Positions 600 to 59,040 of a stretch of DNA of 64,000 nt are shown one piece after another. The position numbers and the translations under genes are program-made. Position 1 is the first letter of the stretch, and each line of letters opens with the position of its first letter. The stretch is taken from assembly GCA_965213685.1 (NCBI GenBank), contig CBDBZY010000003.1, forward strand, positions 292,168 through 356,167, in the 5' to 3' direction. A model generated the notes under the pieces. The model ran no database searches. It was not told where the DNA came from and saw nothing but the letters and a program-made list of their open reading frames with translations. The DNA is from a bacterium. GTDB taxonomy: Bacteria > UBA8248.

Positions 600-678
600 G
601 CGCGTTCCCGTCCTCCCTCGGGAAGACGGCTCGTCACCCGCAAAGCGGGTGTGGCCCACAAATCGGGAAGAGAGTCTG

Positions 679-1132: not shown

Positions 1133-1158
1133 AACTCCGAGAGGCTCTGAACGCGAAC

Positions 1159-1560
1159 ATGGCCACCATACCGAAGCACTACGCCACAGGAAAACGAAAG
1201 ACCTCCGTCGCGCGCGTCTGGATAGAGCCGGGCGACGGGAGAATTCTGGTCAACAACACCCCGGCGAACGAGGTATTTCCTCCGCGGACACCTCGCTCAT
1301 GGTGATCAAGCAGCCCTTCGACCTCACCGGGACCTGGGGGGGCTATGACGTGCGGGCCACCGTCAGGGGCGGAGGCCTCACCGGCCAGGCGGGCGCCGTT
1401 CGCCACGGCATCTCGAAAGCCCTCCTGGGCGTGGACCCCCGCGTTTCGGTCCATTCTGAAAAAGGGCGGGGCCTCATCACGCGCGACTCCCGCGTCAAGG
1501 AGCGCAAGAAGTACGGCCTCAAGGGGCGCGCGCAAGAGCTTCCAGTTCTCCAAACGCTGA
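1159..1560 (+). CDS. rpsI: 30S ribosomal protein S9 (apparent frameshifts)
   Basis: [47 protein letters not shown] and C-terminal [10 protein letters not shown]. Confidence 0.95.
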
Positions 1561-1578
1561 TCCATCCGGCAGCCGTTC

Positions 1579-1609
1579 GGGGGCTGGCTTTCGCCGGCCC
1601 CCCTTTTTT
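1579..1609 (+). terminator. Rho-independent terminator after rpsI
   Basis: GGGGGCTGGC-TTTC-GCCGGCCCCC stem-loop followed by T6. Confidence 0.8.
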
Positions 1610-1701
1610 GTGCGAAAAAATGGATTGTGGTAGATATTCGTTGTCCTCAAAGCGTGCGGGGGGGTGCGCGGCCGGGGAAACGCGCCGGGGGAGAGGGAGA
1701 C

Positions 1702-3962: not shown

Positions 3963-4161
3963 GGGGCGCGTTGGCCTCAGAGGTTTGAACCATCTCCGTC
4001 GTTGTGAGACATTTCATGCGCCGGACGGTGGCGGACGCCGGGGCGGCGGATCCGGCCGGCGGCTCACTCAAGCAAAATCAAATATTTGAAAATTCGGCCT
4101 CATCCGCCCGGAGGCTGGCAGGGCCCCCCTCGATGAAAGGCGGGGCAGGAGGAGCGTCCCG

Positions 4162-11820: not shown

Positions 11821-12776
11821 ATGATGCCCGATAACGGCGAGGAGGACGAGCCATGTCCGTGGGGCGGGAGAAGATTTGACGAGCTTTCCGAGGAACTGAA
11901 AGACCGACTGCGGAGCCACAAGGTTGTTGCCTACGAGATTGCCACCGAGAATGAAAACTCGATAAGAGACTTGTTCATCCGCCTGCAAGGCGGGTGGATT
12001 CTCTCCTGGATGAGTATGTCGATGGGACGTGGGAGTCCAGGCTGGCCGGCAAGTTGCATACATTTGAAGCGCGATGCAAGGAAGCGGCCAAGGCGGAGAA
12101 AGAGCACCAGGACACGGAATATGCTGGATATTATAGAGAATACGCTCAACTGACGAAGACGTCGGCTGATCAGGCGTCTACAATTCGGAGGAGGCACGCC
12201 TTTTTCGCCCAGGAAATGCTGAAGCTGCTCTCTCCGAAGAAACGGGACCCGAGGCGATCATTTACCGATTTTGAGCGGCAGGCGGTGTTCTATCGGGATG
12301 CGATGTTGTGTCAATACTGCAGGATGAGTGGAGGAGATGACCACAGGGTGTCGTGGGAAGAGGCGCAGGCGCACCACGTCCGTCCTCACAACGAGGGCGG
12401 GGCAACCAGCATCGAGAACGCGGCGCTGGTCCATCGGGATTGTCATCCGAAGGGTCCGCAGGCCGTCAGGGAATTTCAGAATTGGTGGGGGAGAAGAACC
12501 TCAAATGGACGCAGCTCCACGAATGGCGGGAGCCTCCCCCGTTCCTTTCCGCCACCGGATGGCACAAAGGCGAGGTTCCGCTATAAGCGCCGGGACTTCC
12601 ATGGGGAGATTCGGGACGGGAAGCTGGTTGTGAACGGAACGCCCTATGGAAGTTTCTCCGGTGCATCGGGGGCGGTCAGCGGCGGTAAATTCGGGAACGG
12701 ATGGAAAGCTTGGAAGTTGCAGCTCCCGGATGAGGAAGACTGGACGTTGGCCGACGAATGGAGGTGGCGGGGCTAG
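11821..12776 (+). pseudogene. Fragmented DUF262(GmrSD-like)-HNH nuclease with C-terminal RAMA-like domain
   Basis: First piece ends RDLFIRLQGG (DUF262-type C-terminal motif) and changes frame near 11994; second piece has CQYC..HHVRPHNEGGATSIENAALVHRDCH (HNH) and YGSFSGASGAVSG..NGWKAW (RAMA-like); lower GC than flanks. Confidence 0.65.
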
Positions 12777-38631: not shown

Positions 38632-41600
38632 CTAGCGGGCCGCCCCCACGGCTTCGCTCGGGGAGAAGCCATCCCGTTCTTGCGGAGCAAGTTTTTGGAG
38701 AAGTATGACGATTCTTCGGTTCTTGGCGCGCTCCTCCTCGGTGTCGTTGCTGGCCGCGGGCCGATGGAACGAGTGGGCGGCGGCGGACAGGCGCCGGGGA
38801 GATATGTTTCTGGATTCCAGGAATTTGACGACGGCGAGGGCGCGCGCGGATGAAAGCTCCCAATTCGTGGGATAGCGGCTGAGGAGATTGCCTCGAATCG
38901 GTTTGTTGTCCGTATGTCCTTCTATCCGGATCTCCTTGTCTGTTTGCGTCTGGAGAAATTCCGCGATCCTCGCAAGCGTCTCGATGCCTTTGGGCCGGAT
39001 ATCCGCGCTTCCAGAGTCAAACAAAAGACTGCTCACGATGCTCACCCGGAGCCGGTCCTCGGTCTGCTGCAAGGTGACGAGTTGTTTCTTGAGTTGCGTG
39101 TTCACCGCCTCCATGTCTTCTTCTAGCCGCCTCGCCCGCTCCGCTTCCTGACGCGCCTTTTTCTCCAGAATTTTGGAGCGCGCAATCGCGAGTGCCTGCT
39201 TTTTGATCGCTTCCGCCAGATTGGAGCTCGTCTGATGCAGCTTGGTCTTCATGAAGTCGGCCACGGAGGTCTTCTCTGCGAGGAGCTTACCCATCTCCTC
39301 CACCTGTCCCTGGAGAAGCGCCTGGGCTTTTTTGAGCTGCGCGACCTGCTCGTCCCGTTCGCTGGCGAGTTGAAGGTTGCGGGCGTTTGATTTTTCCAGT
39401 CCCTCGCGCGTCGTGCGCTCTGCAGCGAGCACCTCCCGGCTTTGCTCGAGGGATTGGGCGATTTTCTCGCTTGTGGCCTTTTCGCGCTCGATGTGGAGGT
39501 TCTTCTCAGCGAGAGCCTTGTCCATCTCCTCCACCTGCCCCTGGAGGAGCGCCTGTGATTTTTCCAGTCCTTCGCGCGTCGTGCGCTCTGCAGCGAGCGC
39601 CGCCCTGCTTTGCTCGAGGGATTGTGCGATTTTCTCGCTTGTGGCTTTTTCGCGTTCGATGTGGAGGTTTTTCTCGGCGAGAGCCTTGTCCATCTCCTCC
39701 ACCTGTCCCTGGAGGAGCGCCTGTGATTTTTCCAGCCCTTCGCGGGTCATGCGCTCTGCAGCGAGCGCCGCCCGGCTTTGCTCGAGAGATTGGGCGATTT
39801 TCAGGCTGGTGGCCTTTTCGCGCTCGATGTGAAGGTTCTTCTCGGCGAGCGCCTTGCCCATCTCCTCCACCTGTCCCTGGAGGAGTGTCTGTGATTTTTC
39901 CAGCCCTTCGCGGGTCATGCGCTCCGTTGCGAGCGCCGCCCTGCTTTGCTCGAGGGATTGGGCGATTTTCAGGTTTGTGGCCTTTTCCCGTTCGATGTGG
40001 AGGTTCTTCTCGGCGAGCGCCTTGTCCATCTCCTCCACCTGCCCCTGGAGGAGTGCCTGCGCGGTTTTGAGGCGTGTGACCTGCTCGTCCCTCTCGCTGG
40101 CGAGTTTCAGGTTGCGGGCGTTTGATTTTTCGAGTCCCTCGCGGGTCATGCGCTCTGCAGCGAGCGCCGCCCGGCTTTGCTCGAGAGATTGGGCGATTTT
40201 CAGGCTGGTGGCCTTTTCGCGTTCGATGTGCAGGTTTTTCTCGGCGAGAGCCTTGTCCATCTCCTCCACCTGCCCCTGGAGAAGCGCCTGTGATTTTTCG
40301 AGTCCCTCGCGGGTCATGCGCTCTGCAGCGAGCGCCGCCCGGCTTTGCTCGAGGGATTGGGCGATTTTCAGGCTGGTGGCCTTTTCGCGCTCGATGTGGA
40401 GGTTTTTCTCGGCGAGGGCCTTGTCCATCTCCTCCACCTGTCCCTGGAGGAGCGCCTGTGATTTTTCCAGCCCCTCGCGGGTCATGCGCTCTGCAGCGAG
40501 CGCCGCCCGGCTTTGCTTGAGGGATTGTGCGATTTTCAGGCTTGTGGCCTTTTCCCGTTCGATGTGGAGGTTTTTCTCGGCGAGGGCCTTGTCCATCTCC
40601 TCCACCTGTCCCTGGAGGAGCGCCTGTGATTTTTCCAGCCCCTCGCGGGTCATGCGCTCTGCAGCGAGCGCCTCCCGGCTTTGCTCGAGGGATTGGGCGA
40701 TTTTCAGGCTGGTGGCCTTTTCGCGCTCGATGTGGAGGTTTTTCTCGGCGAGAGCCTTGTCCATCTCCTGCACCTGCCCCCGGAGGAGCGCCTGTGATTT
40801 TTCCAGCCCCTCGCGGGTCATGCGCTCTGCAGCGAGCGCCTCCCGGCTTTGCTCGAGGGATTGGGCGATTTTCAGGCTGGTGGCCTTTTCGCGCTCGATG
40901 TGGAGGTTTTTCTCGGCGAGAGCCTTGTCCATCTCCTGCACCTGCCCCCGGAGAAGCGCCTGGGCTTTTTTGAGGCGCGCGACCTGCTCGTCCCGTTCGC
41001 TGGCGAGTTGAAGGTTGCGGGCGTTTGATTTTTCCAGCCCTTCGCGGGTCATGCGCTCCGCTGCGAGCGCCGCCCGGCTTTGCTTGAGGGATTGGGCGAT
41101 TTTCAGGCTGGTGGCTTTTTCGCGTTCGATGTGGAGGTTTTTCTCGGCGAGAGCCTTGCCCATCTCTTCCACCTGCCCCTGGAGAAGCGCCTGTGATTTT
41201 TCGAGTCCTTCGCGCGTGATGCGCTCCGCTGCGAGCGCCGCCCGGCTTTGCTCGAGGGATTGGGCGATTTTCAGGCTGGTGGCTTTTTCGCGCTCGATGT
41301 GAAGGTTCTTCTCGGCGAGAGCCTTCCCCATCTCCTCTACCTGCCCCTGGAGGAGCGCCTGTGATTTTTCCAGCCCTTCGCGCGTGATGCGCTCCGCTGC
41401 GAGCGCCTCCCGGCTTTGCTGGAGGGATTGGGCGATTTTCAGGTTTGTGGCCTTTTCCCGTTCGATGTGGAGGTTTTTCTCGGCGAGAGCCTTGCCCATC
41501 TCCTCCACCTGTCCCTGGAGGAGCGTCTGCGCGGTTTTGAGGCGCGCGACCTGCTCGTCCCGCTCGCTGGCGATTTTCAGGCTGGTGGCCTTTTCGCGTT

Positions 41601-43299
41601 CGATGTGGAGGTTTTTCTCGGCGAGAGCCTTGCCCATCTCCTCCACCTGTCCTTGGAGGAGCGCCTGTGCGGTTTTGAGGCGCGCGACCTGCTCGTCCCT
41701 CTCGCTGGCGAGTTGCAGGTTGCGGGCGTTTGATTTTTCCAGCCCTTCGCGCGTGATGCGCTCCGCTGCGAGCGCCTCCCGGCTTTGCTGGAGGGATTGG
41801 GCGATTTTCAGGTTTGTGGCCTTTTCCCGTTCGATGTGCAGGTTCTTCTCGGCGAGAGCCTTGTCCATCTCCTCCACCTGCCCCTGGAGGAGCGCCTGTG
41901 ATTTTTCGAGCCCCTCGCGGGTCATGCGCTCTGCAGCGAGCGCCGCCCGGCTTTGCTCGAGAGATTGGGCGATTTTCAGGCTGGTGGCTTTTTCGCGTTC
42001 GATGTGGAGGTTTTTCTCGGCGAGGGTCTTCCCCATCTCCTCAATCTGCCCCTGGAGGAGCGCCTGCGCTTTTTTGAGGCGTGTGACCTGCTCGTCCCTC
42101 TCGCTGGCGAGTTTCAGGTTGCGGTCGTTTGATTTTTCGAGTCCCTCGCGGGTCATGCGCTCTGCAGCGAGCGCCTTGTCCATCTCCTCCACCTGCCCCT
42201 GGAGAAGCGCCTGTGATTTTTCCAGTCCCTCGCGGGTCATGCGCTCCGCTGCGAGCGCCTCCCGGCTTTGCTCGAGGGATTGTGCGATTTTCAGGCTAGT
42301 GGCCTTTTCGCGCTCGATGTGCAGGTTTTTCTCGGCGAGAGCCTTGCCCATCTCCTCCACCTGCCCCTGGAGAAGCGCCTGTGCGGTTTTGAGGTGCGCG
42401 ACCTGCTCGTCCCTCTCGCTGGCGATTTTTAGGCTAGTGGCTTTTTCGCGTTCGATGTGGAGGTTTTTCTCGGCGAGAGCCTTTCCCATCTCCTCCACCT
42501 GTCCCTGGAGGAGTGCCTGTGATTTTTCCAGTCCCTCGCGGGTCATGCGCTCTGCAGCGAGCGCCGCCCGGCTTTGCTCGAGAGATTGTGCGATTTTCAG
42601 GCTGGTGGCCTTTTCGCGTTCGATGTGCAGGTTTTTCTCAGCGAGGGTCTTGCCCATCTCCTCCACCTGCCCCTGGAGGAGCGCCTGCGCTTTTTTGAGC
42701 TGCGCGACCTGCTCGTCCCGCTCGCTGGAGATTTTCTCGCTAGTGGCCTTTTCGCGTTCGATGTGAAGGTTCTTCTCTGCGAGCGCCTTGTCCATCTCCT
42801 CCACCTGCCCCTGGAGAAGCGCCTGCGCGGTTTTGAGGCGCGCGACCTGCTCGTCCCTCTCGCTGGCGATTTTCAGGCTGGTGGCCTTTTCGCGCTCGAT
42901 GTGCAGGTTTTTCTCGGCAAGAGCCTTTCCCATCTCCTCCACCTGTCCCTGGAGAAGCGCCTGTGCGGTTTTGAGGCGCGCGACCTGCTCATCTCTCTCG
43001 CTGGCGAGTTGGAGGTTGCGGGCGTTTGATTTTTCCAGCCCCTCGCGCGTCATGCGCTCCGCTGCGCGCAGGGAGCGCGCGCGGGTTTCCGCCTGTTCGA
43101 GTCGGGAGCGCAACTCCCTCGCCCGCCCCTCCAGGGTTTCGGCGCGGCGGGAGACCTCCCGCAGCCTGATGGAGTGCGCCGCGAGCTCGACCTCTCGTTT
43201 TTCCAGTGAACTCTTTGCCACGTGGGATTGCTGGGCGAGGTATCCCGTTCCGCCGAGAAGCGCAGCGATAATCGCCCCTATAGAGATGCGAACGCCCAA
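38632..43299 (-). CDS. Giant membrane-anchored coiled-coil protein with C-terminal OmpA/MotB peptidoglycan-binding domain (1555 aa)
   Basis: N-terminal hydrophobic helix; ~1270 aa repeats; C-terminal LLFDSGSA..IRIEGHTDN..NWELSSARA..NDTEEERAKNRR. Confidence 0.9.
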   Translation of the reverse strand: MGVRISIGAIIAALLGGTGYLAQQSHVAKSSLEKREVELAAHSIRLREVSRRAETLEGRARELRSRLEQAETRARSLRAAERMTREGLEKSNARNLQLASERDEQVARLKTAQALLQGQVEEMGKALAEKNLHIEREKATSLKIASERDEQVARLKTAQALLQGQVEEMDKALAEKNLHIEREKATSEKISSERDEQVAQLKKAQALLQGQVEEMGKTLAEKNLHIEREKATSLKIAQSLEQSRAALAAERMTREGLEKSQALLQGQVEEMGKALAEKNLHIEREKATSLKIASERDEQVAHLKTAQALLQGQVEEMGKALAEKNLHIEREKATSLKIAQSLEQSREALAAERMTREGLEKSQALLQGQVEEMDKALAAERMTREGLEKSNDRNLKLASERDEQVTRLKKAQALLQGQIEEMGKTLAEKNLHIEREKATSLKIAQSLEQSRAALAAERMTREGLEKSQALLQGQVEEMDKALAEKNLHIEREKATNLKIAQSLQQSREALAAERITREGLEKSNARNLQLASERDEQVARLKTAQALLQGQVEEMGKALAEKNLHIEREKATSLKIASERDEQVARLKTAQTLLQGQVEEMGKALAEKNLHIEREKATNLKIAQSLQQSREALAAERITREGLEKSQALLQGQVEEMGKALAEKNLHIEREKATSLKIAQSLEQSRAALAAERITREGLEKSQALLQGQVEEMGKALAEKNLHIEREKATSLKIAQSLKQSRAALAAERMTREGLEKSNARNLQLASERDEQVARLKKAQALLRGQVQEMDKALAEKNLHIEREKATSLKIAQSLEQSREALAAERMTREGLEKSQALLRGQVQEMDKALAEKNLHIEREKATSLKIAQSLEQSREALAAERMTREGLEKSQALLQGQVEEMDKALAEKNLHIEREKATSLKIAQSLKQSRAALAAERMTREGLEKSQALLQGQVEEMDKALAEKNLHIEREKATSLKIAQSLEQSRAALAAERMTREGLEKSQALLQGQVEEMDKALAEKNLHIEREKATSLKIAQSLEQSRAALAAERMTREGLEKSNARNLKLASERDEQVTRLKTAQALLQGQVEEMDKALAEKNLHIEREKATNLKIAQSLEQSRAALATERMTREGLEKSQTLLQGQVEEMGKALAEKNLHIEREKATSLKIAQSLEQSRAALAAERMTREGLEKSQALLQGQVEEMDKALAEKNLHIEREKATSEKIAQSLEQSRAALAAERTTREGLEKSQALLQGQVEEMDKALAEKNLHIEREKATSEKIAQSLEQSREVLAAERTTREGLEKSNARNLQLASERDEQVAQLKKAQALLQGQVEEMGKLLAEKTSVADFMKTKLHQTSSNLAEAIKKQALAIARSKILEKKARQEAERARRLEEDMEAVNTQLKKQLVTLQQTEDRLRVSIVSSLLFDSGSADIRPKGIETLARIAEFLQTQTDKEIRIEGHTDNKPIRGNLLSRYPTNWELSSARALAVVKFLESRNISPRRLSAAAHSFHRPAASNDTEEERAKNRRIVILLQKLAPQERDGFSPSEAVGAAR
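39270..43065 (-). repeat. Modular coding tandem repeat (168-, 138- and 231-bp units)
   Basis: 20 full copies of QALLQGQVEEM.KALAEKNLHIEREKATSLKIA interleaved with three other modules; 168-bp spacing seen at 40441/40609. Confidence 0.95.
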
Positions 43300-47211: not shown

Positions 47212-47362
47212 AGGTGAGAGCAGAGGGCGCGCGGACGGCCAGCCGGGAGAGCGGGAGAGAGATAGTGGGGGCCATCTTCCGGGTCCCGGGTCGTTTTTGT
47301 CGCCTCCGCCGTGGTTGCGCGGTTGCGGGGGTTTCTCGTTGCATGGGGAGGGAGTTCCGGAA

Positions 47363-47713
47363 ATGTCGAGGCTAGTGGAATGGTATTACCACCGCTCCGG
47401 CTGAAAGACCTGCGCCAAAACGCAAGCGTTTCTTGCGTCAAGGGGGGTGGAGGTGGCCGAGCGGGTCAGCGCCCAGAAAGATACGGTGCGCGAAGAGGGG
47501 GTGGACGCCGTTCTGGATGGCGTGACGGACGTGTATTCGACCAGGGGCCGGAAGGTGCTGCACGTGGACCTCGAAACGGAAAAGCCTGCGCGGGAGGAGG
47601 TGCTGGCGCTTTTGCTGGGCCGCTCGGGCGCGCTCCGGGCGCCGGTCGTCAAGTGTCGGAACACCCTTGTCGTGGGCTTTCATGAGGAAACATACGCCCG
47701 GGTCCTGGGGTGA
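47363..47713 (+). CDS. ArsC-family (seleno)protein with UxxC motif; in-frame UGA at 47402-47404 read as Sec
   Basis: MSRLVEWYYHRSG-U-KTCAKTQAFL continues in frame into ORF 47447-47713 (LLGRSGALRAPV...LVVGF); GGAG RBS upstream; SECIS-like hairpin downstream of the UGA. Confidence 0.88.
47420..47438 (+). promoter_or_regulatory. Bacterial SECIS-like hairpin of the ArsC-family gene
   Basis: ACGCAAG-CGTTT-CTTGCGT perfect 7-bp stem; G at loop position 2; 22 nt between UGA and loop. Confidence 0.75.
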
Positions 47714-47729
47714 GGTGCCTCGGGACGCC

Positions 47730-49265
47730 TTAGAGGGCCAACTGGCCCCGGGTGGGTTCCGCTCAGCAAAACCAGGATTCGCTCAAACGCGGCGGACGGA
47801 CGCGCTCGGAGGGGAAGACGCCCTTGGGCTTGCTCTGGGCGGGCCGCTCCAGGATGTCGGCCGCCAGCCGGCGCAGTCGGAGGAAGGTGACGGCCGCGTC
47901 CTCCCGGCGGGCCGCCGCATCCTCGACGAGGAGAAGCGCCTCCTCGTGCAGCCTGTCCATCCTAGGGTCCGGGTGCTCCCAGCGATACATGAAATTCTCG
48001 GGGTCCAGCGCCCGAACGTGCTTGCGCATGTGGGCGGATTCGAGGAGGCAGGAGCCCGGGGGCACCAGGAGCCGGATGGCCATTTGGATGGGGTCGACCT
48101 CGTCGATCAGGGCGTGCTCCTCGATAAAGTCCAGCAGGTCGAAATAATCCTGGGGGCTTGTCCACGGCGTGAACGCCACGAGGGAGGGCCGAATCGAGAC
48201 GCGGGCCTCCCGCGCCGCTCTCACGAGGCGAACTACATCCTCTTTAACGTGCCCCTTGTCCAGATGCCCGAGCACGCGGTTGCTCAGGGATTCGACGGCG
48301 GTTACGAAAAACGCGCACCCGTTTTCCCGGAATTGGGGCAGAAGCGCCTCATGCCGGACGAGGTGGGCCACCTTGGCGGTGAAATCGAAGGTGATCGAGG
48401 GAAACCTCTCGTGCAGGGCGCGCGTGAGCCGAACCGCATGGGTGGGTCCGTTCAGGAAATCCGGGTCCGCAAAACTGATGTGGCGCGCCCCGCGCGCGAC
48501 CAAATCCGCAATGTCCTCCAGCACCCGTTCTCGCGGCACGACAAAAAAACGGCCCCCGTACACAGGGGGAATGGGGCAGTGGAGGCACAGGTGCTTGCAG
48601 CCTCGGCTCGCCTCGACCGCTCCTGCGGGGTAGCGCTCCCCCCCCTTGACGAGGTGGGCGTATGCGCGCACCTCCGGCAAGCCGTCTCGCGCGGGCTTGC
48701 GCAGGGGAATTTTTTCGAGATACGGGCCGGACGCGCGCCCTCGCGTGGCCGCCCCCGGGACTTCCGCGGCGTCGGAGCGGGATAGCCCCTCGATGAGCTG
48801 CAGAAGAGGCCATTCAAACTCGCCGCCGATGGCCGAATCCGCGCCGTTTTCGAGGAGGTAGTCCTTGTTGAGCAGGGCGTAGAGGCCGTAGAAACAGATG
48901 TGACTCCCCGGGTTGGTTTCGCGCACCCTCGCCGCCACCTCCACGCCGAGCCGGAGGGCTGTGTGCATCGGCACGCTGATGCCGACGAACTTCGCGCGGG
49001 AGGCTTTGGCCGCGCAGAAATCCTCCGCCGCCACGTCCATCGCCAGGGGCTGAAAGCCCGCCTCGCGCAAAAAGGCGAGGGGAGAGGCGACGGCCAGCGG
49101 CTGGCGCCCCAGCTCGTAGCAGGAGATGAGGAGGACGGCTCCGGGTGCTTTCCACTCGGCTGTCCGACTCGCCTGGTTCCGAATCAACGTCCTCGCTTCC
49201 TCACGGAAAAAGCCCCGGGCGCGCGATGCCCGGGGCTTCTGGGGTATATGGCCCGCATCCGTCAT
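47730..49265 (-). CDS. CUAEP-tail B12-binding radical SAM (seleno)protein; in-frame UGA at 47763-47765 read as Sec
   Basis: CKHLCLHC (CxxxCxxC); N-terminal cobalamin-binding-like domain; reading through UGA gives ESWFC-U-AEPTRGQLAL-TAA. Confidence 0.9.
47734..47749 (-). promoter_or_regulatory. Bacterial SECIS-like hairpin of the radical SAM gene
   Basis: Minus strand GGGGCC-AGTT-GGCCCT; G at loop position 2; 19 nt between UGA and loop. Confidence 0.7.
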
Positions 49266-49645
49266 GTGGTGAAAGATTTGCCGCAGCCGCACATGCTCAT
49301 CGCGTTGGGGTTGTTGATCTTGAAGCCCGAGCCCTGGAGGGAATCGACGAAGTCGATCTCCGTTCCCGCGATGACGGGGTAGCTATGCGGGTCCACGAAC
49401 ACGTCAAATCCGTCGGCGGGGAATATTTTGTCCTCCGGGTTGGCCGATTCCTCGAAATACAGGCCGTAGTTGTAGCCGGAGCACCCGCCGGCCGTGACGG
49501 CCAGGCGCAGTCCGTGGCCGGTTTTGCCTTCGGCCTCGAGGATCTCCGCCACTTTCCCGCTGGCGCGCCGGGTGACCGCGATGCCCTCCTGAACTTTCGG
49601 CTTGCCCTGCGATTGATCGAACAAATTGATCGTTCCATCCGACAT
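49262..49645 (-). CDS. HesB/IscA/ErpA-family A-type Fe-S carrier
   Basis: LRLAV.AGGCSG..Y, GTEIDFVDSL.GSGF.INNPNA...CGCGKSF. Confidence 0.95.
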   Translation of the reverse strand: MSDGTINLFDQSQGKPKVQEGIAVTRRASGKVAEILEAEGKTGHGLRLAVTAGGCSGYNYGLYFEESANPEDKIFPADGFDVFVDPHSYPVIAGTEIDFVDSLQGSGFKINNPNAMSMCGCGKSFTT

Positions 49646-49946: not shown

Positions 49947-49976
49947 CTTGACAAAAACAAACTAAGATAATATATT
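49947..49976 (+). promoter_or_regulatory. Sigma70 promoter of clpB overlapped by a HAIR-like (HspR) inverted repeat
   Basis: TTGACA(49948)-N17-TATATT(49971); CTTGACA-N7-ACTAAG at 49947-49966 resembles CTTGAGT-N7-ACTCAAG. Confidence 0.65.
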
Positions 49977-50074: not shown

Positions 50075-52711
50075 ATGAACATGGATGAATGTACCCATAA
50101 GACGCAAGAGGCGATTCGCCACGCCCAGGAGCTGGCCCAGCAGAGAGGGCACCAGGGCATCGCGCCCGCCCACGTGCTTTTGGCGCTTTTGGCCCAGCCG
50201 GAGGGCGTGCTTGCGCCTGTGATCGAAAAGGCGGGGATAGACGCCCATGCGCTGGGTCGCGCTCTGGAGAAGTCCCTGGAGAAACTGCCCAAAGTTACCG
50301 GAGGCGGCGCCTCCGCCTTCGTCGCGCCCGAGTTGGCGACGCTCTTGCAGGCGTCCCGGCGGGAGGCCAGGGCTATGGCGGACGAGTATGTGAGCGGCGA
50401 GCACCTGCTCCTGGCCGCACTGGAGGGCGGCGGGGCCGACGTCGCGAAAATCTTGCGCGCAGCCGGCCTCCATCGGGAGGTCGTGCTCTCGGCGCTCAAG
50501 GATGTCCGGGGAAACCAGCGGGTCACCGACCAGGACGCGGAGAGTCGCTACCAGGCGCTGGAGCGTTTCGCGGTCGACCTCACCGCGCAGGCCCAAGCCG
50601 GCAAGCTCGACCCCGTCGTGGGGAGGGACGAGGAGATCCGGCGCGTCATGCAGGTGCTCTCCCGGCGCTTCAAGAACAACCCCGTGCTCATCGGGGACCC
50701 CGGCGTGGGCAAAACCGCGATCGTCGAGGGACTGGCCCAGCGCATCGTGAACGGCGATGTGCCGGAGGGGCTGAAGGGCAAGCGCCTGCTGGGTCTCGAC
50801 ATCGGCTCCCTCATCGCGGGCTCGAAATTCCGGGGCGAGTTCGAGGACCGGCTGAAAGCCGTGCTGAAGGAGGTGAGCGAGTCTGCGGGCGAGGTCATCC
50901 TGTTCATCGACGAGCTGCACACCGTCGTGGGCGCCGGCGCGGCGGAGGGGGCGGTGGACGCCTCCAACCTGCTCAAGCCGGCCCTCGCCCGCGGAGAGCT
51001 GCACTGCGTGGGCGCCACCACGCACGATGAATACCGAAAACACATCGAGAAGGACGCGGCGCTCGAGAGGCGCTTCCAGCCGGTCGTGGTCGATGAGCCC
51101 AGCAAGGAGGACACCATCTCCATTCTGCGCGGGCTGAAGGAGAGATACGAGATTCACCACGGCGTCCGCATCCTCGACAACGCCCTGGTCGCCGCCGCCG
51201 CGCTCTCCCATCGCTACATCAGCGATCGCTATCTGCCGGACAAGGCCATCGACCTGATCGATGAGGCCGCGAGCAGCCGGCGCCTCGAACTGGACAGCCT
51301 GCCCAAGGAGATCGACAGCCAGGAGCGCGAGCTGCTTCGCCTGCGGATCGAGGAGCGCGCCCTGGAGGGCGAGGAAGGCGCGGACAGCCGGGAGCGCCTG
51401 GATCGGATACGGAGCCGGATAACCCTGCTGGACGAGCAGAGCCGGGAGCAGCGAAGACAGTGGGAGGACGAGAAGGAGGCCATCTCCCGGGTGCGCGAAC
51501 TCAAGGAGCGCGTCGAGGAGCTGCGGGCGGAGGCCGCGCGCGCGGAGCGCGAGGGGAACCTCGGCCGGGCGGCGGAGCTGCGGTATGGCGCAATCGTCGC
51601 GGCGGAAAAAGAGATCGCCCAGGCGGAGGAGCGTCTCGGAAACGAGGCCGACGGGCGGATGCTCAAGGAGGAGATCGGCGAGGACGACGTGGCCGCCATC
51701 GTGAGCCGCTGGACGGGCATCAACGTGAACAGACTGCTGGAGACGGAGCGGGAGAAGCTCCTCCAGATGGAGGAGAACATCCACAAGCGCGTCGTGGGGC
51801 AGGATCGGGCGGTGGAGGCGTTGTCGGAAGCCGTGCGCCGCGCCCGCGCCGGCATCATGGACGAGAACCGGCCCATCGGCTCGTTCATCTTTCTGGGCCC
51901 CACCGGCGTGGGCAAGACGGAGCTCGCCCGCGCACTCGCGGAGTTCCTCTTCGACGATGAGGCGGCGATGATCCGCGTGGACATGAGCGAGTACATGGAA
52001 AAGCACGCCGTGGCCAGGCTCATTGGAGCACCGCCCGGGTACGTCGGCTATGAAGAGGGCGGGCAGCTCACCGAAGCGGTGCGGAAGAAGCCCTATTCCG
52101 TGCTTCTTCTCGACGAGATAGAAAAGGCGCATCCCGACACCTTCCACATTCTCCTGCAGCTGCTCGATGACGGCCGGCTGACGGACGGCCACGGCCGCAC
52201 GGTGGATTTCAGGAACACCGTCGTCATCATGACGAGCAACGCGGGCACCTCCGAGCTCTCCCAGACCGAGATCGGTTTCGGCGAGGGCGGCGCGGGCGAG
52301 GGCGATCAGTCCGGGCAGCTGCTCCGGGCGCTTCGGCAGGTGTTCCGGCCCGAGTTTCTCAACCGGATTGACGAGGTCATCGTCTTCCGCTCGCTCACCA
52401 GGGCGCAGATTCGCGACATCGTGGACATTCAGCTGCGGGACCTGGAGAGGCGCCTCGAGGCGCAAAAAATAGGATTGCGCCTGACGGACGCCGCCAAGGA
52501 CTTCCTGGCGGAGCGCGGCTATGACCCCGTCTACGGCGCGCGGCCGCTCAAGCGGGCGATTCAGACGCACCTCATGAATCCGCTCAGCAAAAAGCTGCTG
52601 GCCGGAGAGTTTGGGGCCGGCGAAACCGTCGAGGCGGATCATGCGAGGGGGGCGGACGCGCTCTCCTTTGGCGTCGTCATGGAGATGGAGGCCGGGGCGG
52701 TGAAGACGTAG
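50075..52711 (+). CDS. clpB: Chaperone ClpB
   Basis: Two AAA+ modules ([16 protein letters not shown]), long M-domain (AAELRYG), [14 protein letters not shown]. Confidence 0.97.
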
Positions 52712-52836
52712 GAAACACTCCCGGAAACGCTCCCGGAGGAGGGCGCGCCGGCTGTTGCTGCGGCGTCCGGGAAGCCGGGCGGAAACAGGAGATGCGAGAT
52801 TTTGATGCGCATATTTTGCTATGAGGAGAAACGTTC

Positions 52837-54759
<1,923 letters not shown>

Positions 54760-54783
54760 GCGGTTCGCCTGGATGAGGATGGC

Positions 54784-55740
54784 ATGCCCAAGCGTGATTA
54801 CTATGATGTCCTGGGAATTGACCGGAGCGCTTCCGACGCCGAATTGAAGCGCGCCTTCAAGAAGCTGGCGCGGAGATATCACCCCGACGTCAACCCGGGG
54901 GACAAGAAGGCGGAGGAGCGCTTCAAGGAGATCAGCGAGGCATACGCCGTCCTATCGGACGCGGACAAGCGCAAGCAATACGACGCCATGGGACACGCCG
55001 CCTTCGGCGGCGGGAGTCCCTGGGGGGAGGGCGGCGCCCCGCCGAGCATGGAGGATATTCTGCGCGAGTTTGGCCTGGGCGATATTCTGGGAGGGATGTT
55101 CGGCGGAGGCCGCGCAGACCCCAGGCGCGGGGGGTTCCGGACGCAGCCTCCGCCCCCCCAGCGGGGCCAGGACGTGAACTACTCGATGGAGATTGGCTTT
55201 GACGACGCTCTCAAGGGGCTCCACACCACCATCACCGTGCCGAAGACCACCTCCCGGGACGGCAGGATGCAGCGCGGCACCGAACGCATCCAGGTGCGGA
55301 TACCGCCCGGCGTCTCGAACGGCTCCCGCGTCCGCCTCGCGGGCAAGGGGGAGTCCTCCCTGAACGGCGGGGGGAGTGGAGACCTTTTCATCGTCACCAA
55401 GGTGCGGGAGCACCCCTTCTTCGAGCGGAAGGGGGACAACTTGTATCTCGAGCTTCCCGTCAGCCTCGGCGAGGCGCTGCTGGGCGCCCGCGTGGAGATC
55501 AACACGTTCGAGGGGGCGACCAAGATGACGATTCCCCCCTCCACCCAGAATGGCCAGGTTTTCCGGCTTTCGGGGAAGGGCGCCCCGAGGCTGAAGGGGG
55601 GCGGCAAGGGCGATTTGTACGTCACCGTCCGCGTGCTGCTGCCGGAGGGCGTGGATGAGGAGAGCAAGGAGATGATCCGCGAGTTCGAGCGGCGCAACCC
55701 GACGTCGCCGCGGGCGAAGATGACGGGCGTGAGCCTGTAG
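54784..55740 (+). CDS. DnaJ-class co-chaperone without zinc finger (CbpA-like)
   Basis: J domain with HPD, G-rich linker, C-terminal domains, no CxxCxGxG repeats. Confidence 0.9.
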
Positions 55741-55813
55741 GGGCGGAGGGGCGCGGCGCTTCCTGCGGGGGAGAGGGGGCGGGCGCGTCAGCCTGGCGGA
55801 GCCCCGTCCCGGA

Positions 55814-56233
55814 ATGGTCGAGGAGGAGACCGTGGCGCGTAGAGGGGCGAGAGAGGGGCGCTACACCATTGGCGCGGTGGCCGACATGTTCGGCGTCCAC
55901 CAGCAGACGCTCCGGCTGTATGAGCGCGAGGGGCTCATCTGCCCGGGCCGCAGCGAGGGGAGGACGCGCTACTACTCGGAGGAGGACCTGGAGCGGCTGG
56001 ACATCATCCTCGTCCTCAGGCGGGAGATGGGCGTGAACCTGGCGGGGGTGCAGGTCATCATCGACCTCCGGCAGAAGCTCATGCGCGCGCTGGAGCGCCT
56101 GGGAGAGCTCGAGGAATTGCTCGAGAGCCGGGCGTTCGAGGATTTGCGGGAGAAGATGAACAGCGCGACCCCCGAGATGCAGGCCATGCTTCCCACGTTC
56201 GCCGCCAAACTGGTGCGTTTCAGGAGGAGATAG
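55814..56233 (+). CDS. hspR: MerR-family heat-shock repressor (HspR-like)
   Basis: [42 protein letters not shown]; follows the CbpA-like gene. Confidence 0.82.
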
Positions 56234-56235
56234 CG

Positions 56236-57090
56236 GTGCGCACGAATTCCATCAAATCCTTTTTGCTGCTCGGCTTGCTGACGGGGCTGATCCTGCTCAT
56301 CGGGAGTCTCGTCGGCGGAACGGCCGGGCTCGTCATCGCCCTGGTGCTGGCCGTGGGGGTCAACGGATACAGCTACTGGTATTCGGACAAGATCGTTCTG
56401 GCCAGCACGGACGCGCGCGAGGTGCTCCCCGAACATGCGCCGGAACTCTACGGCATGGTGGCGCACCTGGCCCGGCGCGCGCATCTGCCCATGCCGCGCG
56501 TGTACGTCATCCCCGAGAGGGCGCCGAACGCCTTCGCCACAGGGAGAAACCCCGAGAACGCCGCCGTCGCCTTTACCGAGGGGATTTTGCGCGACCTCAG
56601 CCGCGAGGAGCTCGAGGGCGTGGCCGCGCATGAGCTCGCCCATATCCAGAATCGCGACATCCTGCTGAGCACCATCGCCGCCTCCTTGGCGGGAGCCATC
56701 ATGTACATTGCGCAGATGGCGCAGTTCGCCGCGTTTTTCGGCGCCTACGGCCGCGATGAGGAGGATCGCGGCGGCGGCCTGCTGGGCATCATCCTGGCCG
56801 CCATCGTGGCCCCCGTCGCGGCGACCCTTCTCCAGATGGCGGTGAGCCGCTCGCGGGAATACCTGGCCGACGCCGAGGGTGCCCGCATCGCCGGCACCCC
56901 GGTCGGTCTGGCGAACGCCCTCGGTCGCCTGGATGCGGCGTCCCGCCGGGAGGAGCTGGAATGCGCGAGCGAGGCGACGGCCCACATGTACATCGTCAAC
57001 CCGTTGTCGGGCGGCGGTCTGGCGAGTCTTTTCAGCACACACCCGCCGATGGAGGAGAGGATTCGGCGCTTGATGGGAATGCGATACTAG
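56236..57090 (+). CDS. htpX: Zinc metalloprotease HtpX
   Basis: [31 protein letters not shown]. Confidence 0.96.
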
Positions 57091-57115
57091 GTTTCGGTGA
57101 GGAGGAAGCTGCTTC

Positions 57116-57778
57116 ATGAAAGGCGAGAACACCGGGTTCCGGACAGGCGATGGGAGCGGGTTGGAGGCGGACGCCGTCGGCGAATCGACGGAGGATGGCG
57201 CGCCCCAGGAGGGGCCGCGCGTCGTGGACAGGCGGCGCGTGCGGGAGGACGGCGGAGAGGAGAGTGCCGGGGCGACCGAGGAAGTCCCTCGCGTGCCCGC
57301 GTATGTGGAGCGGCTGCAGGCGAAGGTCGCCGCCGCCGAGGAGAAGTTGCGGCAGCACATCGAGAGGATCGACAAGGAGACGGCCGATTTCCGGGCGCGC
57401 CAGGAGCGCGAGACGGAGCGCAGGGCACAGGAGGCGAAGAGGCAGGCGGTCTCCGGCTTCCTGGGCGTCGCCGACGATCTGGCGCGCGCCACGGCGGCGG
57501 CGGGCGGCGGCGAGCGGGAGCAGGTTCTCGAAACCCTGGTGCAGGGGATCCGGATGATCCAGGGCCGGTTTTTTCAGGAACTCTCGAATTTGGGAGTCGA
57601 GCCTCTCGCGGCGATGGGCGCCGCCTTCAATCCCGAGGAGCACGAGGCGGTGCGCATGATCGAGGTGAGCGACAAGGCGCAGGACGGTCTGGTGGTGGAG
57701 GAGCTGGCTTCCGGCTACAGGATGGGCGGCGTGGTCGTCCGTCCCGCGCGCGTATCGGTGGGCAGATACGCGGGATAG
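57116..57778 (+). CDS. grpE: Nucleotide exchange factor GrpE
   Basis: DDLARA, G..FNPEEHEAV, GY.MG..VVRPARVSV. Confidence 0.9.
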   Translation: MKGENTGFRTGDGSGLEADAVGESTEDGAPQEGPRVVDRRRVREDGGEESAGATEEVPRVPAYVERLQAKVAAAEEKLRQHIERIDKETADFRARQERETERRAQEAKRQAVSGFLGVADDLARATAAAGGGEREQVLETLVQGIRMIQGRFFQELSNLGVEPLAAMGAAFNPEEHEAVRMIEVSDKAQDGLVVEELASGYRMGGVVVRPARVSVGRYAG

Positions 57779-57864
57779 CCGGCGGCGTCGGCTCCCGCTC
57801 TTGAACCGCCCATCTCCCCATAGTATGGTCGCGTGTTTTTTCATTTTTACGGCGGAAGGAAAGC

Positions 57865-59040
57865 ATGAGCAAGCGGGACTACTACGAAGTGCTGGGCGTC
57901 GGCCGGGATGCGAGCGACGCCGACATCAAGAAGGCCTATCGCGCACTGGCCATGCGGCACCATCCGGATCGCAACCAGGGGGACGCGAAGGCGGAGGAGT
58001 TGTTCAAGGAAGCGTCCGAGGCCTACCAGGTGTTGAGCGCGCCCGAGAAGAGAAGCGCCTACGATCGCTTCGGGCACGACGGACTTCGCGGGATGGGGCA
58101 CCAGGGGTTCTCGAGTTTTGACGATATTTTCTCCTCGTTCGGAGATATTTTTGGCGATTTGTTCGGTGGTGCCTTCGCGGGCGGACGCGACCGCCGGGGC
58201 GGGCCGCAAAAGGGCCGGGACCTGGCCTACCGATTCGAGTTGACGTTCGAGGAAGCGGCCACGGGCGTGGAGCGCGAGATAGCGTTCGAGCGTCCCGCCG
58301 AATGCGTGTATTGCGGCGGCAGCGGGGCGAAGTCGCCCGATTCGGTTCGGGAGTGCCCGTCCTGCGCGGGCAGCGGCCAGATGGCCTATCGCCAGGGTTT
58401 TATCACCTATTCCACCACCTGCCCGGACTGCGGCGGCACAGGCTCCAGGATTGCGGCGCATTGCGCGGAGTGCGGGGGAGCGGGGCGTCGCCAGGAGCGG
58501 AGGAAGGTGAAGGTGAAGATTCCGCCCGGCGTGGACGAGGGCTCCAGGCTGCGTCTGCGCGAGGAGGGCGAGGGAGGGGCGAAGGGCGGGCCGGCCGGCG
58601 ATTTGTACGTTGTCGTCTCCGTGCTTGCCCATGAGGAGTTCGAGCGCAACGGGGCGGATGTGGCGAGCCGGGTGTCCGTCACCTTCTCCCAGGCCGCCCT
58701 GGGCGACACCGTCCGGGTGCGGACGCTGTATGGGGAAGCCGACCTGCGCATACCGAAGGGGGTGCAGTCCTCCGAGGTCCTCCGGCTCGAGGGCGAGGGC
58801 TTTCAGCGCCTTGGCGGAGGCGGACGCGGGGATCACATGTTCATGGTACACGTCCGAACGCCCACGAAACTGACGCCGGACGAGGAGAGGTTGTTCGGCG
58901 AATTGGCGGAGCTCGAACGCGGGAAGGCGGAGAGGAACGGCGCCGGGAAAAAGGGTGTTTTCAGCAAGCTGGGTTCTCTGTGGGAAGCGATATCCGACTT
59001 TCCCGACACCTTTCATCGGGGGGCAGATGATGGAAGATGA
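57865..59040 (+). CDS. dnaJ: Chaperone DnaJ
   Basis: J domain HPD, G/F region with DIF repeats, four CxxCxGxG motifs. Confidence 0.97.
   Translation: MSKRDYYEVLGVGRDASDADIKKAYRALAMRHHPDRNQGDAKAEELFKEASEAYQVLSAPEKRSAYDRFGHDGLRGMGHQGFSSFDDIFSSFGDIFGDLFGGAFAGGRDRRGGPQKGRDLAYRFELTFEEAATGVEREIAFERPAECVYCGGSGAKSPDSVRECPSCAGSGQMAYRQGFITYSTTCPDCGGTGSRIAAHCAECGGAGRRQERRKVKVKIPPGVDEGSRLRLREEGEGGAKGGPAGDLYVVVSVLAHEEFERNGADVASRVSVTFSQAALGDTVRVRTLYGEADLRIPKGVQSSEVLRLEGEGFQRLGGGGRGDHMFMVHVRTPTKLTPDEERLFGELAELERGKAERNGAGKKGVFSKLGSLWEAISDFPDTFHRGADDGR

Follow-up and report, generated by a model that had tools for sequence, protein, structure and literature searches.

The locus under study lies in a 64-kb stretch of bacterial DNA, analysed as a whole and referred to here as the window, and comprises three genes. 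Gene A (47363–47715, forward strand) encodes, by translation, a protein of 116 amino acids with an ArsC/Spx fold and a UxxC motif, U14-K-T-C17. Gene B (47730–49265, reverse strand) encodes, likewise by translation, a radical SAM protein of 511 amino acids with a CUAEP tail. A gene (49262–49645) on the strand of gene B and upstream of it encodes an IscA/HesB A-type iron-sulfur (Fe-S) carrier of 127 amino acids. The GC content around the genes is unremarkable (0.55–0.70) and gives no hint of an island, and the RecA of the window genome is closest to those of Nitrospinota MAGs.

Gene A and gene B converge and are therefore not part of one transcript. A first-pass annotation of the window had described them as tail to tail with 16 bp between their stops. 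The arrangement stands and the distance does not: the stop codons of gene A (TGA, 47713–47715) and gene B (TAA, 47732–47730) are separated by 14 nt (47716–47729), the larger figure resulting from a count that starts at the T of the TGA. The same annotation had noted that a plain ORF list truncates both genes, which it does, giving gene A as 47447–47713 and gene B as 47763–49292, and that the IscA gene overlaps the start of the radical SAM gene. Indeed, the IscA stop TGA and the gene B ATG share the sequence ATGA (49262–49265). This overlap is specific to the window. In the seven related loci L001–L007 the aligned region begins 16–40 nt past the IscA stop, and no in-frame enzyme start precedes it. 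The IscA protein scores 117 bits against TIGR00049 (cut-off 58.8) and 63.9 bits against PF01521, and its cluster-binding cysteines, Cys55 and C119-G-C121, are present.

Both gene families had been named in the first-pass annotation, and the names are confirmed by matches above the cut-offs of two models, NF041106 and NF040546. Since both families already have names, gene A and gene B are further members of known families; neither family can be called undescribed, as both are curated in NCBIfam and have appeared in print. Gene B scores 653 bits against NF040546 (cut-off 500), its residues 44–510 covering positions 1–467 of 468, with the N-terminal 43 residues falling outside the model. The match is full-length and includes the defining tail, and nothing excludes membership. 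The family is called uncharacterised in Haft's preprint, and the one review found for radical SAM selenoproteins does not list NF040546. A radical SAM domain is recognized by PF04055 (43.7 bits), and the cysteines of its cluster motif, C223-KHL-C227-LH-C230 (48576–48599, reverse strand), are invariant in 77 of 77 relatives. A search of PDB sequences with gene B yielded no close solved relative, the best match being 9ccb_A at 45.7 bits.

The product of gene B ends in ...SWFC-U-AEPTRGQLAL. Across the family, the core is followed by an unconserved linker of about 45 residues and then by the conserved tail RPPRL(T/S)E.WF-C-U-AEP. Three further cysteines are near-invariant and specific to the family: Cys49 (49119–49121), Cys124 (48894–48896) and Cys317 (48315–48317), all on the reverse strand. 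Of 77 CUAEP-family sequences, 76 have Cys at the first of these positions, 76 at the second and 75 at the third. In the sole ArsL-family sequence used for comparison, the residues are N, T and V.

The product of gene A begins MSRLVEWYYHRSG-U-KTC... and passes the cut-off of NF041106 (123.1 bits against 85), residues 5–111 aligning with positions 1–107 of 107; it also matches PF03960 (33.6 bits, cut-off 24). U14 and C17 line up with the CxxC of Spx, so that gene A has UxxC where Spx and the Cys-form homologues have CxxC. Its kinship with Spx itself is distant, with at most 34 bits against Spx equivalog cut-offs of 123–159, and solved ArsC-family proteins are distant as well (best E about 5e-4). 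NF041106 falls within the ArsC/Spx/YffB superfamily, and a table in a 2026 review names it "arsenate reductase-like protein, UxxC". The context of gene A is not that of an ars operon, as no ars genes were found within the 64-kb window, the neighbouring genes being those for MarR, LLM and cyclase. On present evidence neither an arsenate-reductase nor a regulator function can be assigned to it; it would be a small selenol/thiol redox protein. Upstream of gene A, a terminator-like hairpin with a T-run (47268–47297, forward strand) separates it from the cyclase-like gene. The evidence is weak: a scan of 6 kb gives seven terminator-like sites and shuffled sequence 4.6±2.6, and the site may be due to chance.

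Each of the two genes carries an in-frame UGA, at 47402–47404 on the forward strand in gene A (Sec14) and at 47765–47763 on the reverse strand in gene B (Sec501, in the context WFC-U-AEP). We read both as selenocysteine codons at positions of the Cys type, in agreement with the first-pass annotation, which had proposed a search for homologues with Cys aligned to each UGA. Such homologues exist at both sites. Among 80 loci related to gene B, the codon for residue 501 is TGA in 65 and a Cys codon in eight; the remaining seven have no WFC-U/C motif, one of them (L015) reading WF-UU-AEP. The tail motif C-[U/C]-AEP is thus seen in 73 of 80 loci, and in the 65 loci with TGA the reading frame stays open past it with a conserved AEPT.GQ. 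For gene A, codon 14 is TGA in all eight orthologues found adjacent to the enzyme gene, and the TGA is preceded in these eight by the conserved coding sequence DWYYHRSG. When the best-scoring 150 NF041106 representatives are considered, 66 cover the Sec14 position, of which 51 have Cys and 11 have Trp, and a C..C motif can be read in 50; 31 further representatives begin just past this position. The 11 Trp residues are probably TGA codons taken as Trp by the gene caller.

Bacterial SECIS elements of the fdhF type consist of a hairpin at a fixed short distance past the UGA, with a G in the apical loop. The two hairpins of the locus are alike in both respects, and none of the Rfam families matches either of them; in an Rfam scan of the window only tRNA reached gathering scores, and the region 47300–47900 gave only two chance-level matches. 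In gene A the hairpin (47420–47438, forward strand) has a 7-bp stem, 47420–47426 pairing with 47432–47438, and begins 15 nt past the UGA; its loop, CGUUU, begins 23 nt past the UGA. In gene B (47734–47749, reverse strand) the stem has 6 bp, 47749–47744 pairing with 47739–47734, and the loop AGUU begins 20 nt past the UGA. Loop position 2 is G in both, as the first-pass annotation had it.

It is comparison between relatives that appears to set both hairpins above chance. The gene A hairpin is conserved without covariation: across L001–L007 the loop and six of its seven stem pairs do not change, and L001 and L002 retain the outermost pair as well. For L011 it is still possible to draw six stem pairs, one of them G-U; RNAfold drew another fold. 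The evidence for gene B includes covariation. The hairpin of its relatives begins 13–14 nt past the UGA, and five or more consecutive pairs survive in 60 of the 65 distinct Sec forms through compensatory G-C/A-U and C-G/U-A exchanges, whereas the eight Cys forms retain at most two pairs and none has the hairpin. In the alignment, 80.4% of cells are paired, compared with 70.3±1.1% in shuffles, and none of 500 shuffles reaches that value. RNAalifold on the 65 Sec forms recovers four pairs only, because two loop registers are mixed; a script was used to separate the registers. As the element covers the last ten codons of gene B, the amino acids covary with the stem. Taken together, the comparative data strongly support Sec decoding of gene B.

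The UGAs could instead be true stops, with gene A starting from a GTG at 47447, gene B ending at Cys500, and the hairpins being chance structures or terminators. Such a reading would fit the single-sequence folds, which are no better than shuffles (gene A, z = -0.91, with 34 of 200 shuffles folding as well or better; gene B, z = -0.09, with 88 of 200), and the fact that none of selA, selB, selC and selD was found within the 64-kb window. Public gene calls point the same way, as they stop exactly at the Sec codon in 105 of the 120 closest enzyme homologues, including the RefSeq entry for the homologue of the cultured Thermomicrobium roseum DSM 5159. Against all this, coding is conserved past the TGA of gene B and before the TGA of gene A, Cys is aligned at both sites in homologues, and the gene B hairpin covaries and is lost in the Cys forms, which makes true stops extremely improbable. 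TGA also serves as the ordinary stop of gene A and IscA, so there is no genome-wide recoding of TGA. A scan of the window for TGA-interrupted frames gave four candidates, of which gene B alone is credible; the scan is not exhaustive, since its filter also missed gene A. In a separate search of plasmids, SelD was found in 168 records, the ten organisms named not including Thermomicrobium, and tblastn with the gene A-type ArsC-like protein gave no match against plasmids.

The enzyme family is large, with relatives in at least 571 stretches of the species-genome collection. Its members are mostly Sec-containing and occur in Planctomycetota, Chloroflexota, Acidobacteriota, Methylomirabilota, Nitrospirota, Nitrospinota and other phyla. 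In 39 of the 80 loci, a gene for Fe or Fe-S trafficking or its regulation (IscA, Nfu, IscU, YggX or Rrf2) lies within 1.5 kb of the enzyme gene. The arrangements vary across many phyla; 18 members of the carrier and regulator gene clusters were checked by Pfam, only one of 27 members of the IscA/Nfu cluster lies beyond 1.5 kb of the enzyme, and a SufT-type gene is additionally present near the enzyme in L014. The adjoining Fe-S carrier appears to be the only widely conserved partner of the enzyme. Other neighbours in the 80 loci are ATP-grasp (21), DUF169 (11), formyltransferase (10) and PLP decarboxylase (7) genes; MFS exporters and ATP-grasp enzymes of the L-amino-acid-ligase type recur beside the enzyme gene. 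One type of operon, that of Blastocatellia, combines ATP-grasp, enzyme, Nfu and MFS genes.

The ArsC-like gene behaves differently. It adjoins the enzyme in 8 of 80 loci, or 8 of 71 informative loci given that nine have less than 500 nt of sequence downstream of the enzyme. All eight belong to one Nitrospinota/Tectomicrobia clade and to one syntenic block, and the gene is absent from the nested relatives L008, L016 and L029, where IscA and the enzyme are still together. The ArsC-like protein therefore does not appear to be a general partner of the enzyme, and its adjacency is best taken as a matter of synteny, particular to the lineage, with the block of MarR, LLM and cyclase genes on the opposite strand. 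The adjacency does extend from the window lineage to Tectomicrobia, where the enzyme is 64% identical, which is some evidence for coupling, and the enzyme and the UxxC protein may be partners in trans. The first-pass annotation had proposed the three genes as one module and conserved linkage of the two selenoprotein families as something to look for. The Fe-S carrier link of that module is conserved, the ArsC-like one in one clade only. The accompanying caveat of the annotation, that the adjacency could be coincidental, was apt.

Among characterised proteins, the closest relative of the enzyme is ArsL, which acts in arsinothricin synthesis and whose kinship the first-pass annotation had pointed out. 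The ArsL model NF040542 is the second-best match of gene B, at 296.3 bits and below its cut-off of 450, and a Bacillus protein with an RCCLKC tail is 35% identical to gene B over 409 amino acids; the CUAEP enzymes would thus form a sister family of ArsL. ArsL is reported to join carbon to arsenic by an unusual type of radical SAM chemistry, with a single cluster and a polar or radical alkyl transfer, and its three tail cysteines are reported to bind As(III) (10.1101/2024.02.01.577332; 10.64898/2026.04.29.721666). The two share a two-domain core, the CxxxCxxC motif and vicinal chalcogen residues at the extreme C-terminus. They differ in that the RCCLKC tail of ArsL follows the core directly and offers three ligands, whereas the C-U-AEP tail of gene B sits on its linker and offers two, and in that the gene B family has the three extra near-invariant cysteines, as judged from one ArsL-family sequence. 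The gene neighbours differ too, being ars genes for the ArsL family and Fe-S carrier genes for the gene B family. On a Bacillus plasmid, the ArsL-family gene sits among arsR, ACR3, arsC, arsD and arsA. The ATP-grasp encoded beside the ArsL-family gene in Bacillus was considered as an orthologue of the CUAEP-linked ATP-grasp and rejected; the two are only 24% identical, and the loci thus share no such orthologue. A literature search joining radical SAM, selenocysteine and ArsL found no paper.

The first-pass annotation had combined these elements into one organo-metalloid pathway, in which a trivalent metalloid, mainly arsenic, is held by the Cys-Sec tail and alkylated by the enzyme, with the UxxC protein recycling reducing power and IscA loading the cluster. 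The kinship with ArsL, together with a vicinal chalcogen tail placed like the As(III)-binding tail of that enzyme, speaks for such a pathway, as does the persistence of the adjacency in eight loci as far as Tectomicrobia. The rare CU motif, according to Haft's preprint, is suggestive of an interaction with heavy metals, and in one locus, L042, ArsM and ArsR are encoded 1.5–2.7 kb from the enzyme. L042 is, however, the only one of 80 loci with ars genes near the enzyme, and the window has none, unlike the Bacillus plasmid, where the ArsL-family gene is embedded in ars genes. The restriction of the ArsC-like neighbour to one clade, its loss where IscA and the enzyme stay together, and the convergent orientation also count against the pathway. 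Moreover, Nitrospinota/Nitrospinae MAGs filed under GTDB UBA8248 are listed in BSepDB with 48–54 selenoprotein genes each; should the organism be one of these, it would not be unlikely for two selenoprotein genes to be neighbours by chance. We consider a single organo-metalloid pathway very unlikely. Nothing in the data ties the gene A, gene B and IscA trio to arsenic, and neither an arsenic role nor an ArsC-like partner should be assumed for the enzyme.

Another possibility, which we hold to be unlikely, is that the enzyme inserts sulfur or selenium in the manner of LipA, BioB or MiaB. In that case C49, C124 and C317, possibly joined by the tail as a fourth ligand, would hold a chalcogen-donating auxiliary Fe-S cluster that Nfu, IscA or IscU rebuilds at each turnover. 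The three family-specific cysteines and the Fe-S carrier genes would both be accounted for, the core of gene B weakly matches MiaB and RimO, and SelD is encoded beside the operon in L045, L063 and L076. A CU motif is listed for a selenoprotein family that binds a 2Fe-2S cluster (PMC13188914), and NfuA is reported to rebuild the sacrificial cluster of LipA (PMC13692748). LipA with NfuA resembles gene B in being a radical SAM enzyme that has a dedicated Fe-S carrier; the tie here is gene adjacency in the 39 loci. There is no sequence kinship with LipA beyond the radical SAM core, and a second cluster in gene B is predicted from the three cysteines. Two points argue against insertion: ArsL, as the closest characterised relative, has one cluster and transfers an alkyl group, and the spacing of C49, C124 and C317 appears to differ from that of the N-terminal motif of methylthiotransferases.

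The Cys-Sec tail could also act as a redox arm that forms a selenenylsulfide and shuttles electrons into or out of the active site in an otherwise ordinary 5'-deoxyadenosyl-radical or B12-type enzyme, with the UxxC protein as its reductant in the window lineage. Mammalian thioredoxin reductase has a C-terminal redox arm of this kind, Gly-Cys-Sec-Gly, and a long unconserved linker before a conserved tail fits a swinging arm. UxxC proteins of the thioredoxin fold are reported as homologues of thiol-disulfide oxidoreductases (PMC1794560). The N-terminal domain of gene B weakly resembles a B12-binding domain, though its score against PF02310 (25.8 bits) is under the gathering score of 32.1. Further, the homologous tail position of ArsL binds substrate without redox cycling, and the UxxC partner is absent from 72 of the 80 loci. 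A redox arm of this type is distinctly unlikely.

The reading that we somewhat favour is that gene A and gene B are two independent, genuine selenoprotein genes of named families, and that the functional unit consists of IscA and the radical SAM enzyme. The enzyme would cleave SAM at its [4Fe-4S] cluster, and a SAM-derived alkyl group, probably 3-amino-3-carboxypropyl by analogy with ArsL, would move to a soft atom held on the Cys-Sec arm. This atom may be As, Se, S or another. C49, C124 and C317 would form a second metal or Fe-S site, and the clusters would be installed or repaired by the carrier encoded with the enzyme, which is IscA here and Nfu, IscU or YggX in other phyla. An amino-acid-like small molecule is the probable product, given that genes for ATP-grasp ligases, PLP decarboxylase, formyltransferase and MFS exporters are repeatedly found next to the enzyme gene.

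As to the single steps, the case for alkyl transfer comes from the 35% identity shared with a single characterised enzyme. A sulfur- or selenium-inserting enzyme that sacrifices an auxiliary cluster would explain the Fe-S carriers and the three extra cysteines just as well.

A wider proposal, speculative and quite unlikely in its entirety, is that these genes belong to a widespread undescribed pathway. Here an ArsL-like selenoenzyme would build a C-Se, C-S or C-As bond on a Cys-Sec swinging arm, its second Fe-S site (C49, C124 and C317) being rebuilt by dedicated carriers. The resulting non-proteinogenic amino acid would then be ligated, decarboxylated or formylated and exported, and in the Nitrospinota/Tectomicrobia clade the UxxC selenoprotein would serve as reductant of the arm.

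The locus is of broader relevance in that standard gene calling truncates both selenoprotein genes, and in that the enzyme belongs to a large, mostly Sec-containing family whose only characterised relative makes a carbon-arsenic bond. The comparative data provide leads to its function in the Fe-S carrier partner, the three extra cysteines, and the neighbouring amino-acid ligase and exporter genes. The natural Cys forms of the enzyme, with CCAEP tails as in L033, L036 and L067, can be expressed without Sec machinery.

Two convergent genes, with 14 nt between their ends, each contain an in-frame TGA, and both are shortened in a plain ORF list. Gene A (47363–47715, + strand) encodes a 116-aa protein, MSRLVEWYYHRSG-U-KTC..., assuming readthrough of the TGA at 47402–47404. 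Gene B (49265–47730, − strand) encodes a 511-aa radical SAM enzyme ending ...SWFC-U-AEPTRGQLAL, its TGA being at 47765–47763. Directly upstream of gene B is an IscA/HesB gene of 127 aa (49645–49262, − strand), whose stop shares ATGA with the gene B ATG. Because TGA is the normal stop of both gene A and IscA, a global reassignment of TGA is not present in this organism. A heat-shock cluster (50075–59040: clpB, dnaK, a short dnaJ-like gene, hspR, htpX, grpE, and dnaJ) is also in the window; clpB, divergent from IscA and gene B, is preceded by a near-perfect sigma-70 promoter (TTGACA, 17 nt, TATATT) at 49948–49976.

The first-pass annotation named all three genes correctly, as each scores above the cut-off of its model: gene A with NF041106 'ArsC family (seleno)protein' (123.1 bits, cut-off 85; 33.6 bits with Pfam ArsC), gene B with NF040546 'CUAEP/CCAEP-tail radical SAM (seleno)protein' (653 bits, cut-off 500), and IscA with TIGR00049 (117 bits, cut-off 58.8). 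The kinship of gene B with ArsL, proposed at that stage, was also right: the second-best model is ArsL NF040542, at 296 bits, under its cut-off of 450. Gene A and gene B are new members of families already named. ArsC-like UxxC selenoproteins have been published since 2006 (PMC1794560), and NF041106 is among the families in a review of 2026 (PMC13188914). A 2022 preprint (Haft) calls the CUAEP radical SAM family uncharacterised and remarks on its rare CU motif; the family is absent from the list of the 2026 review. A literature search found no paper on its reaction, and the family is a worthwhile subject for testing.

The proposal that the gene B UGA is a selenocysteine (Sec) codon at a Cys-type position is borne out by the relatives of the enzyme, and a check for homologues with Cys at this position returned them from two collections. 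Among the best 120 public homologues, 105 stop exactly at ...WFC, 13 run on as CCAEP, and 2 are cut in some other way. In a scan of species genomes, one per species, at least 581 stretches matched, at least 571 of them encoding a relative, of which the best 80 loci were kept (L001–L080). The aligned codon is TGA in 65/80 (Sec forms) and a Cys codon in 8/80 (Cys forms); the remaining 7 have no WFC-U/C motif and are mostly cut loci or partial matches. Past the TGA the frame is open and reads AEPT.GQ.... The alignment of the 65 distinct Sec-form stretches is gap-free apart from a single-base shift in L068, and a hairpin of at least five consecutive pairs, its loop beginning 20 nt past the UGA, occurs in 60 of them. 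There are two hairpin registers, with loop AGUU (n = 19, the window included) or AGUUN (n = 46). Compensatory swaps occur at one pair between G-C and A-U (21 vs 19) and at another between C-G and U-A (25 vs 19), and all eight Cys forms have lost the hairpin, keeping at most two pairs. Paired cells make up 80.4% of the Sec-form alignment vs 70.3±1.1% in shuffles, and double-change cells number 72 vs 31.7±4.4; neither value is reached in 500 shuffles, and the optimum is at slide 0. As far as sequence can speak, the support for a SECIS element in gene B is about as strong as such evidence can be.

A Planctomycetota MAG, one of the seven loci without the motif, reads WF-U-U-AEP through two successive TGA codons (L015:5972–5977) with the usual hairpin after them (GAGGGTCAGTTAGACCCTC); unless a sequencing error is responsible, the tail would be a Sec-Sec variant. 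Near the enzyme of Rokubacteria CSP1-6, a 154-aa ORF (L020:7291–7755) matches the C-terminal part of PrdB/GrdB selenoproteins (TIGR04483, 93 bits, under the cut-off) and may be another truncated selenoprotein gene.

The UGA of gene A likewise sits at a Cys-type UxxC position, as had been claimed. Codon 14 is TGA in 8/8 adjacent orthologues, after a conserved DWYYHRSG, and in an alignment with Spx, U14 and C17 fall on its redox CxxC. A search of 1.84 billion representatives gave 335 matches at E ≤ 0.001. Of the best 150 examined, 66 cover position 14, with Cys in 51 (CxxC in 50), Trp in 11, and other residues in 4; the Trp residues are probably TGA codons read as Trp by the gene caller. A further 31 of the best 150 begin right after the UGA, as expected of truncated Sec forms. 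The seven closest relatives share the 6-bp stem core and the loop of the gene A hairpin unchanged, and six stem pairs, one of them G-U, can be drawn in L011, for which RNAfold gave a different fold; the hairpin thus displays conservation without covariation. The 64-kb window holds no tRNA-Sec, selA, selB, or selD, which is uninformative for this piece of a 356-kb contig. RecA of this genome is 86–87% identical to that of MAGs named Nitrospinae or Nitrospinota, and in BSepDB, MAGs so named and filed under GTDB UBA8248 rank among the selenoprotein-richest genomes (48–54 genes each).

To describe the surroundings of the enzyme, ORFs within 7 kb of it in the best 80 loci were clustered and the cluster representatives annotated. 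These 80 of at least 571 loci favour some clades (7 close relatives of the window, about 15 Ktedonobacteraceae), so the figures count loci, not independent events. The Fe-S carrier first noticed beside gene B has counterparts elsewhere: 39/80 loci have a gene for Fe or Fe-S trafficking no more than 1.5 kb from the enzyme, in a form that varies by phylum. IscA, at times after an Rrf2 regulator, is upstream in Nitrospinota, Tectomicrobia, and the window's lineage; Nfu or an NfuA-like gene is downstream in Methylomirabilota and in Blastocatellia and other Acidobacteriota; IscU and IscA are downstream in Poribacteria; and YggX is upstream, overlapping the enzyme start, in Ktedonobacteraceae and Chloroflexia. 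L014 has a SufT-type gene in addition. Just 1 of the 27 members of the IscA/Nfu cluster is more than 1.5 kb from the enzyme. Since several independent carrier arrangements agree, the association of an Fe-S carrier with the enzyme is the one robust link of the finding.

Other neighbours in the best 80 loci are an ATP-grasp protein of the L-amino-acid-ligase type (21/80), DUF169 with four conserved cysteines (11/80), a formyltransferase (10/80), an Orn/DAP-type PLP decarboxylase accompanied by an unknown 160-aa protein (7/80), an Atg22-type MFS transporter (5/80), and SelD with an FAD disulfide reductase (3/80). DUF169 is directly downstream of the enzyme in L010, L013, L014, L017, L019, L021, L025, L026, L028, L033, and L070; a preprint legend shows it near hgcA-like genes of Nitrospina. 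In L045, L063, and L076 (Acidobacteriota/Blastocatellia), the genes for SelD (TIGR00476, 326 bits) and for an FAD-dependent pyridine-nucleotide disulfide oxidoreductase, which has a CxxxxC site, are about 1.5–2.7 kb upstream of the enzyme and adjoin those for the ATP-grasp, radical SAM, and Nfu proteins.

An ArsC-like gene was sought within 10 kb on each side in the best 80 loci by tblastn and by profile on six-frame translations (E ≤ 0.01). It is present in 8/80, namely L001–L007 (75–79% enzyme identity) and L011 (Tectomicrobia, 64%), or in 8/71 informative loci, since nine have less than 500 nt downstream. In all eight it is convergent with the enzyme and belongs to a syntenic opposite-strand block of a MarR-type regulator (where visible), an LLM oxidoreductase, a cyclase-like gene, and the ArsC-like gene. 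Between gene A and the cyclase-like gene is a terminator-like site, of a kind no more frequent in this region than chance predicts. In an enzyme tree of 78 sequences (five loci omitted: two short matches, three with stops inside the matched stretch), these loci and the window fall in a single clade, (L011,(L016,((L029,L008),(window,L001–L007)))). The nested L008, L016, and L029 retain IscA and the enzyme, with an MFS transporter or FMN oxidoreductase where the others have the ArsC-like gene. The pairing of gene A with gene B is therefore lineage-specific synteny, and their shared location is weak evidence of a functional tie.

The arsenic context was scanned in all cluster representatives close to the enzyme in the best 80 loci and in 139/141 smaller-cluster representatives within 2.5 kb, two very long ORFs being dropped. 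Only L042 among these loci has an ars-type context: an arsenite methyltransferase (NF008823, 308 bits, cut-off 263) and an ArsR/SmtB regulator (L042:7327–8510), which precede the formyltransferase, YggX, and radical SAM genes by 1.5–2.7 kb. Another HTH_5 regulator occurs in L065. The cluster representatives scanned include no ArsB/ACR3, ArsA, ArsD, or phosphatase-type ArsC, and the 62 window ORFs scanned include no ars gene. Arsenic is therefore not supported as a general substrate, though it may still be one. The arsenic module of gene A, gene B, and IscA put forward in the first-pass annotation is not supported. In contrast, the ArsL-family gene of B. cereus plasmid pAH820_272 is set among two arsR, a MIP channel, GNAT, ACR3, arsC, arsD, and arsA.

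ArsL, an enzyme with a single cluster, splits SAM into methylthioadenosine and a 3-amino-3-carboxypropyl species, the latter ending on As(III) bound by three tail cysteines (10.1101/2024.02.01.577332; 10.64898/2026.04.29.721666; PMC8552651). The gene B core is 35% identical to an ArsL-family protein. Unlike ArsL, its tail carries C-U on an unconserved linker of about 45 residues, followed by the conserved tail motif. A third reading takes this Cys-Sec tail as a redox arm like that of thioredoxin reductase, which provides a precedent. Of 77 family members, 76, 76, and 75 have Cys at the positions of C49, C124, and C317, which are N, T, and V in the ArsL-family protein, and the gene B family, unlike ArsL, has Fe-S carriers co-encoded. 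The main rival is a sulfur or selenium insertase with a sacrificial cluster, of the LipA/NfuA type (PMC13692748). The best reading, each step of which we infer, is an ArsL-like alkyl transfer to a soft atom that the Cys-Sec arm presents. In such a transferase, C49, C124, and C317 would form a second metal or cluster site, the co-encoded carrier would install or repair the clusters, and the product may be amino-acid-like, as the neighbour genes point to.

A cultured carrier of a CUAEP gene, Thermomicrobium roseum DSM 5159, could serve experiments. On its megaplasmid (NC_011961.1; L081:8977–10413) the RefSeq CDS of the CUAEP-tail protein goes no further than the TGA, past which the frame reads AEPLEDPSGP.... 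An aminotransferase, an MFS transporter, and GNAT are nearby, and there are no ars genes there.

Elsewhere in the window, rplM, rpsI, argC, and argJ (570–3990) are each split across at least two reading frames, with S9, L13, ArgC, and ArgJ fragments in different ORFs, which looks like local assembly indel errors or a run of frameshifts. A 1555-aa ORF (38632–43299, − strand) matches a known family only in its last ~200 residues (OmpA/MotB-type peptidoglycan-binding domain), and the match of a 260-aa ORF (11994–12776, + strand) to the model of the RNA-guided endonuclease IscB is weak and partial (E 1e-6, 28 bits, cut-off 175).
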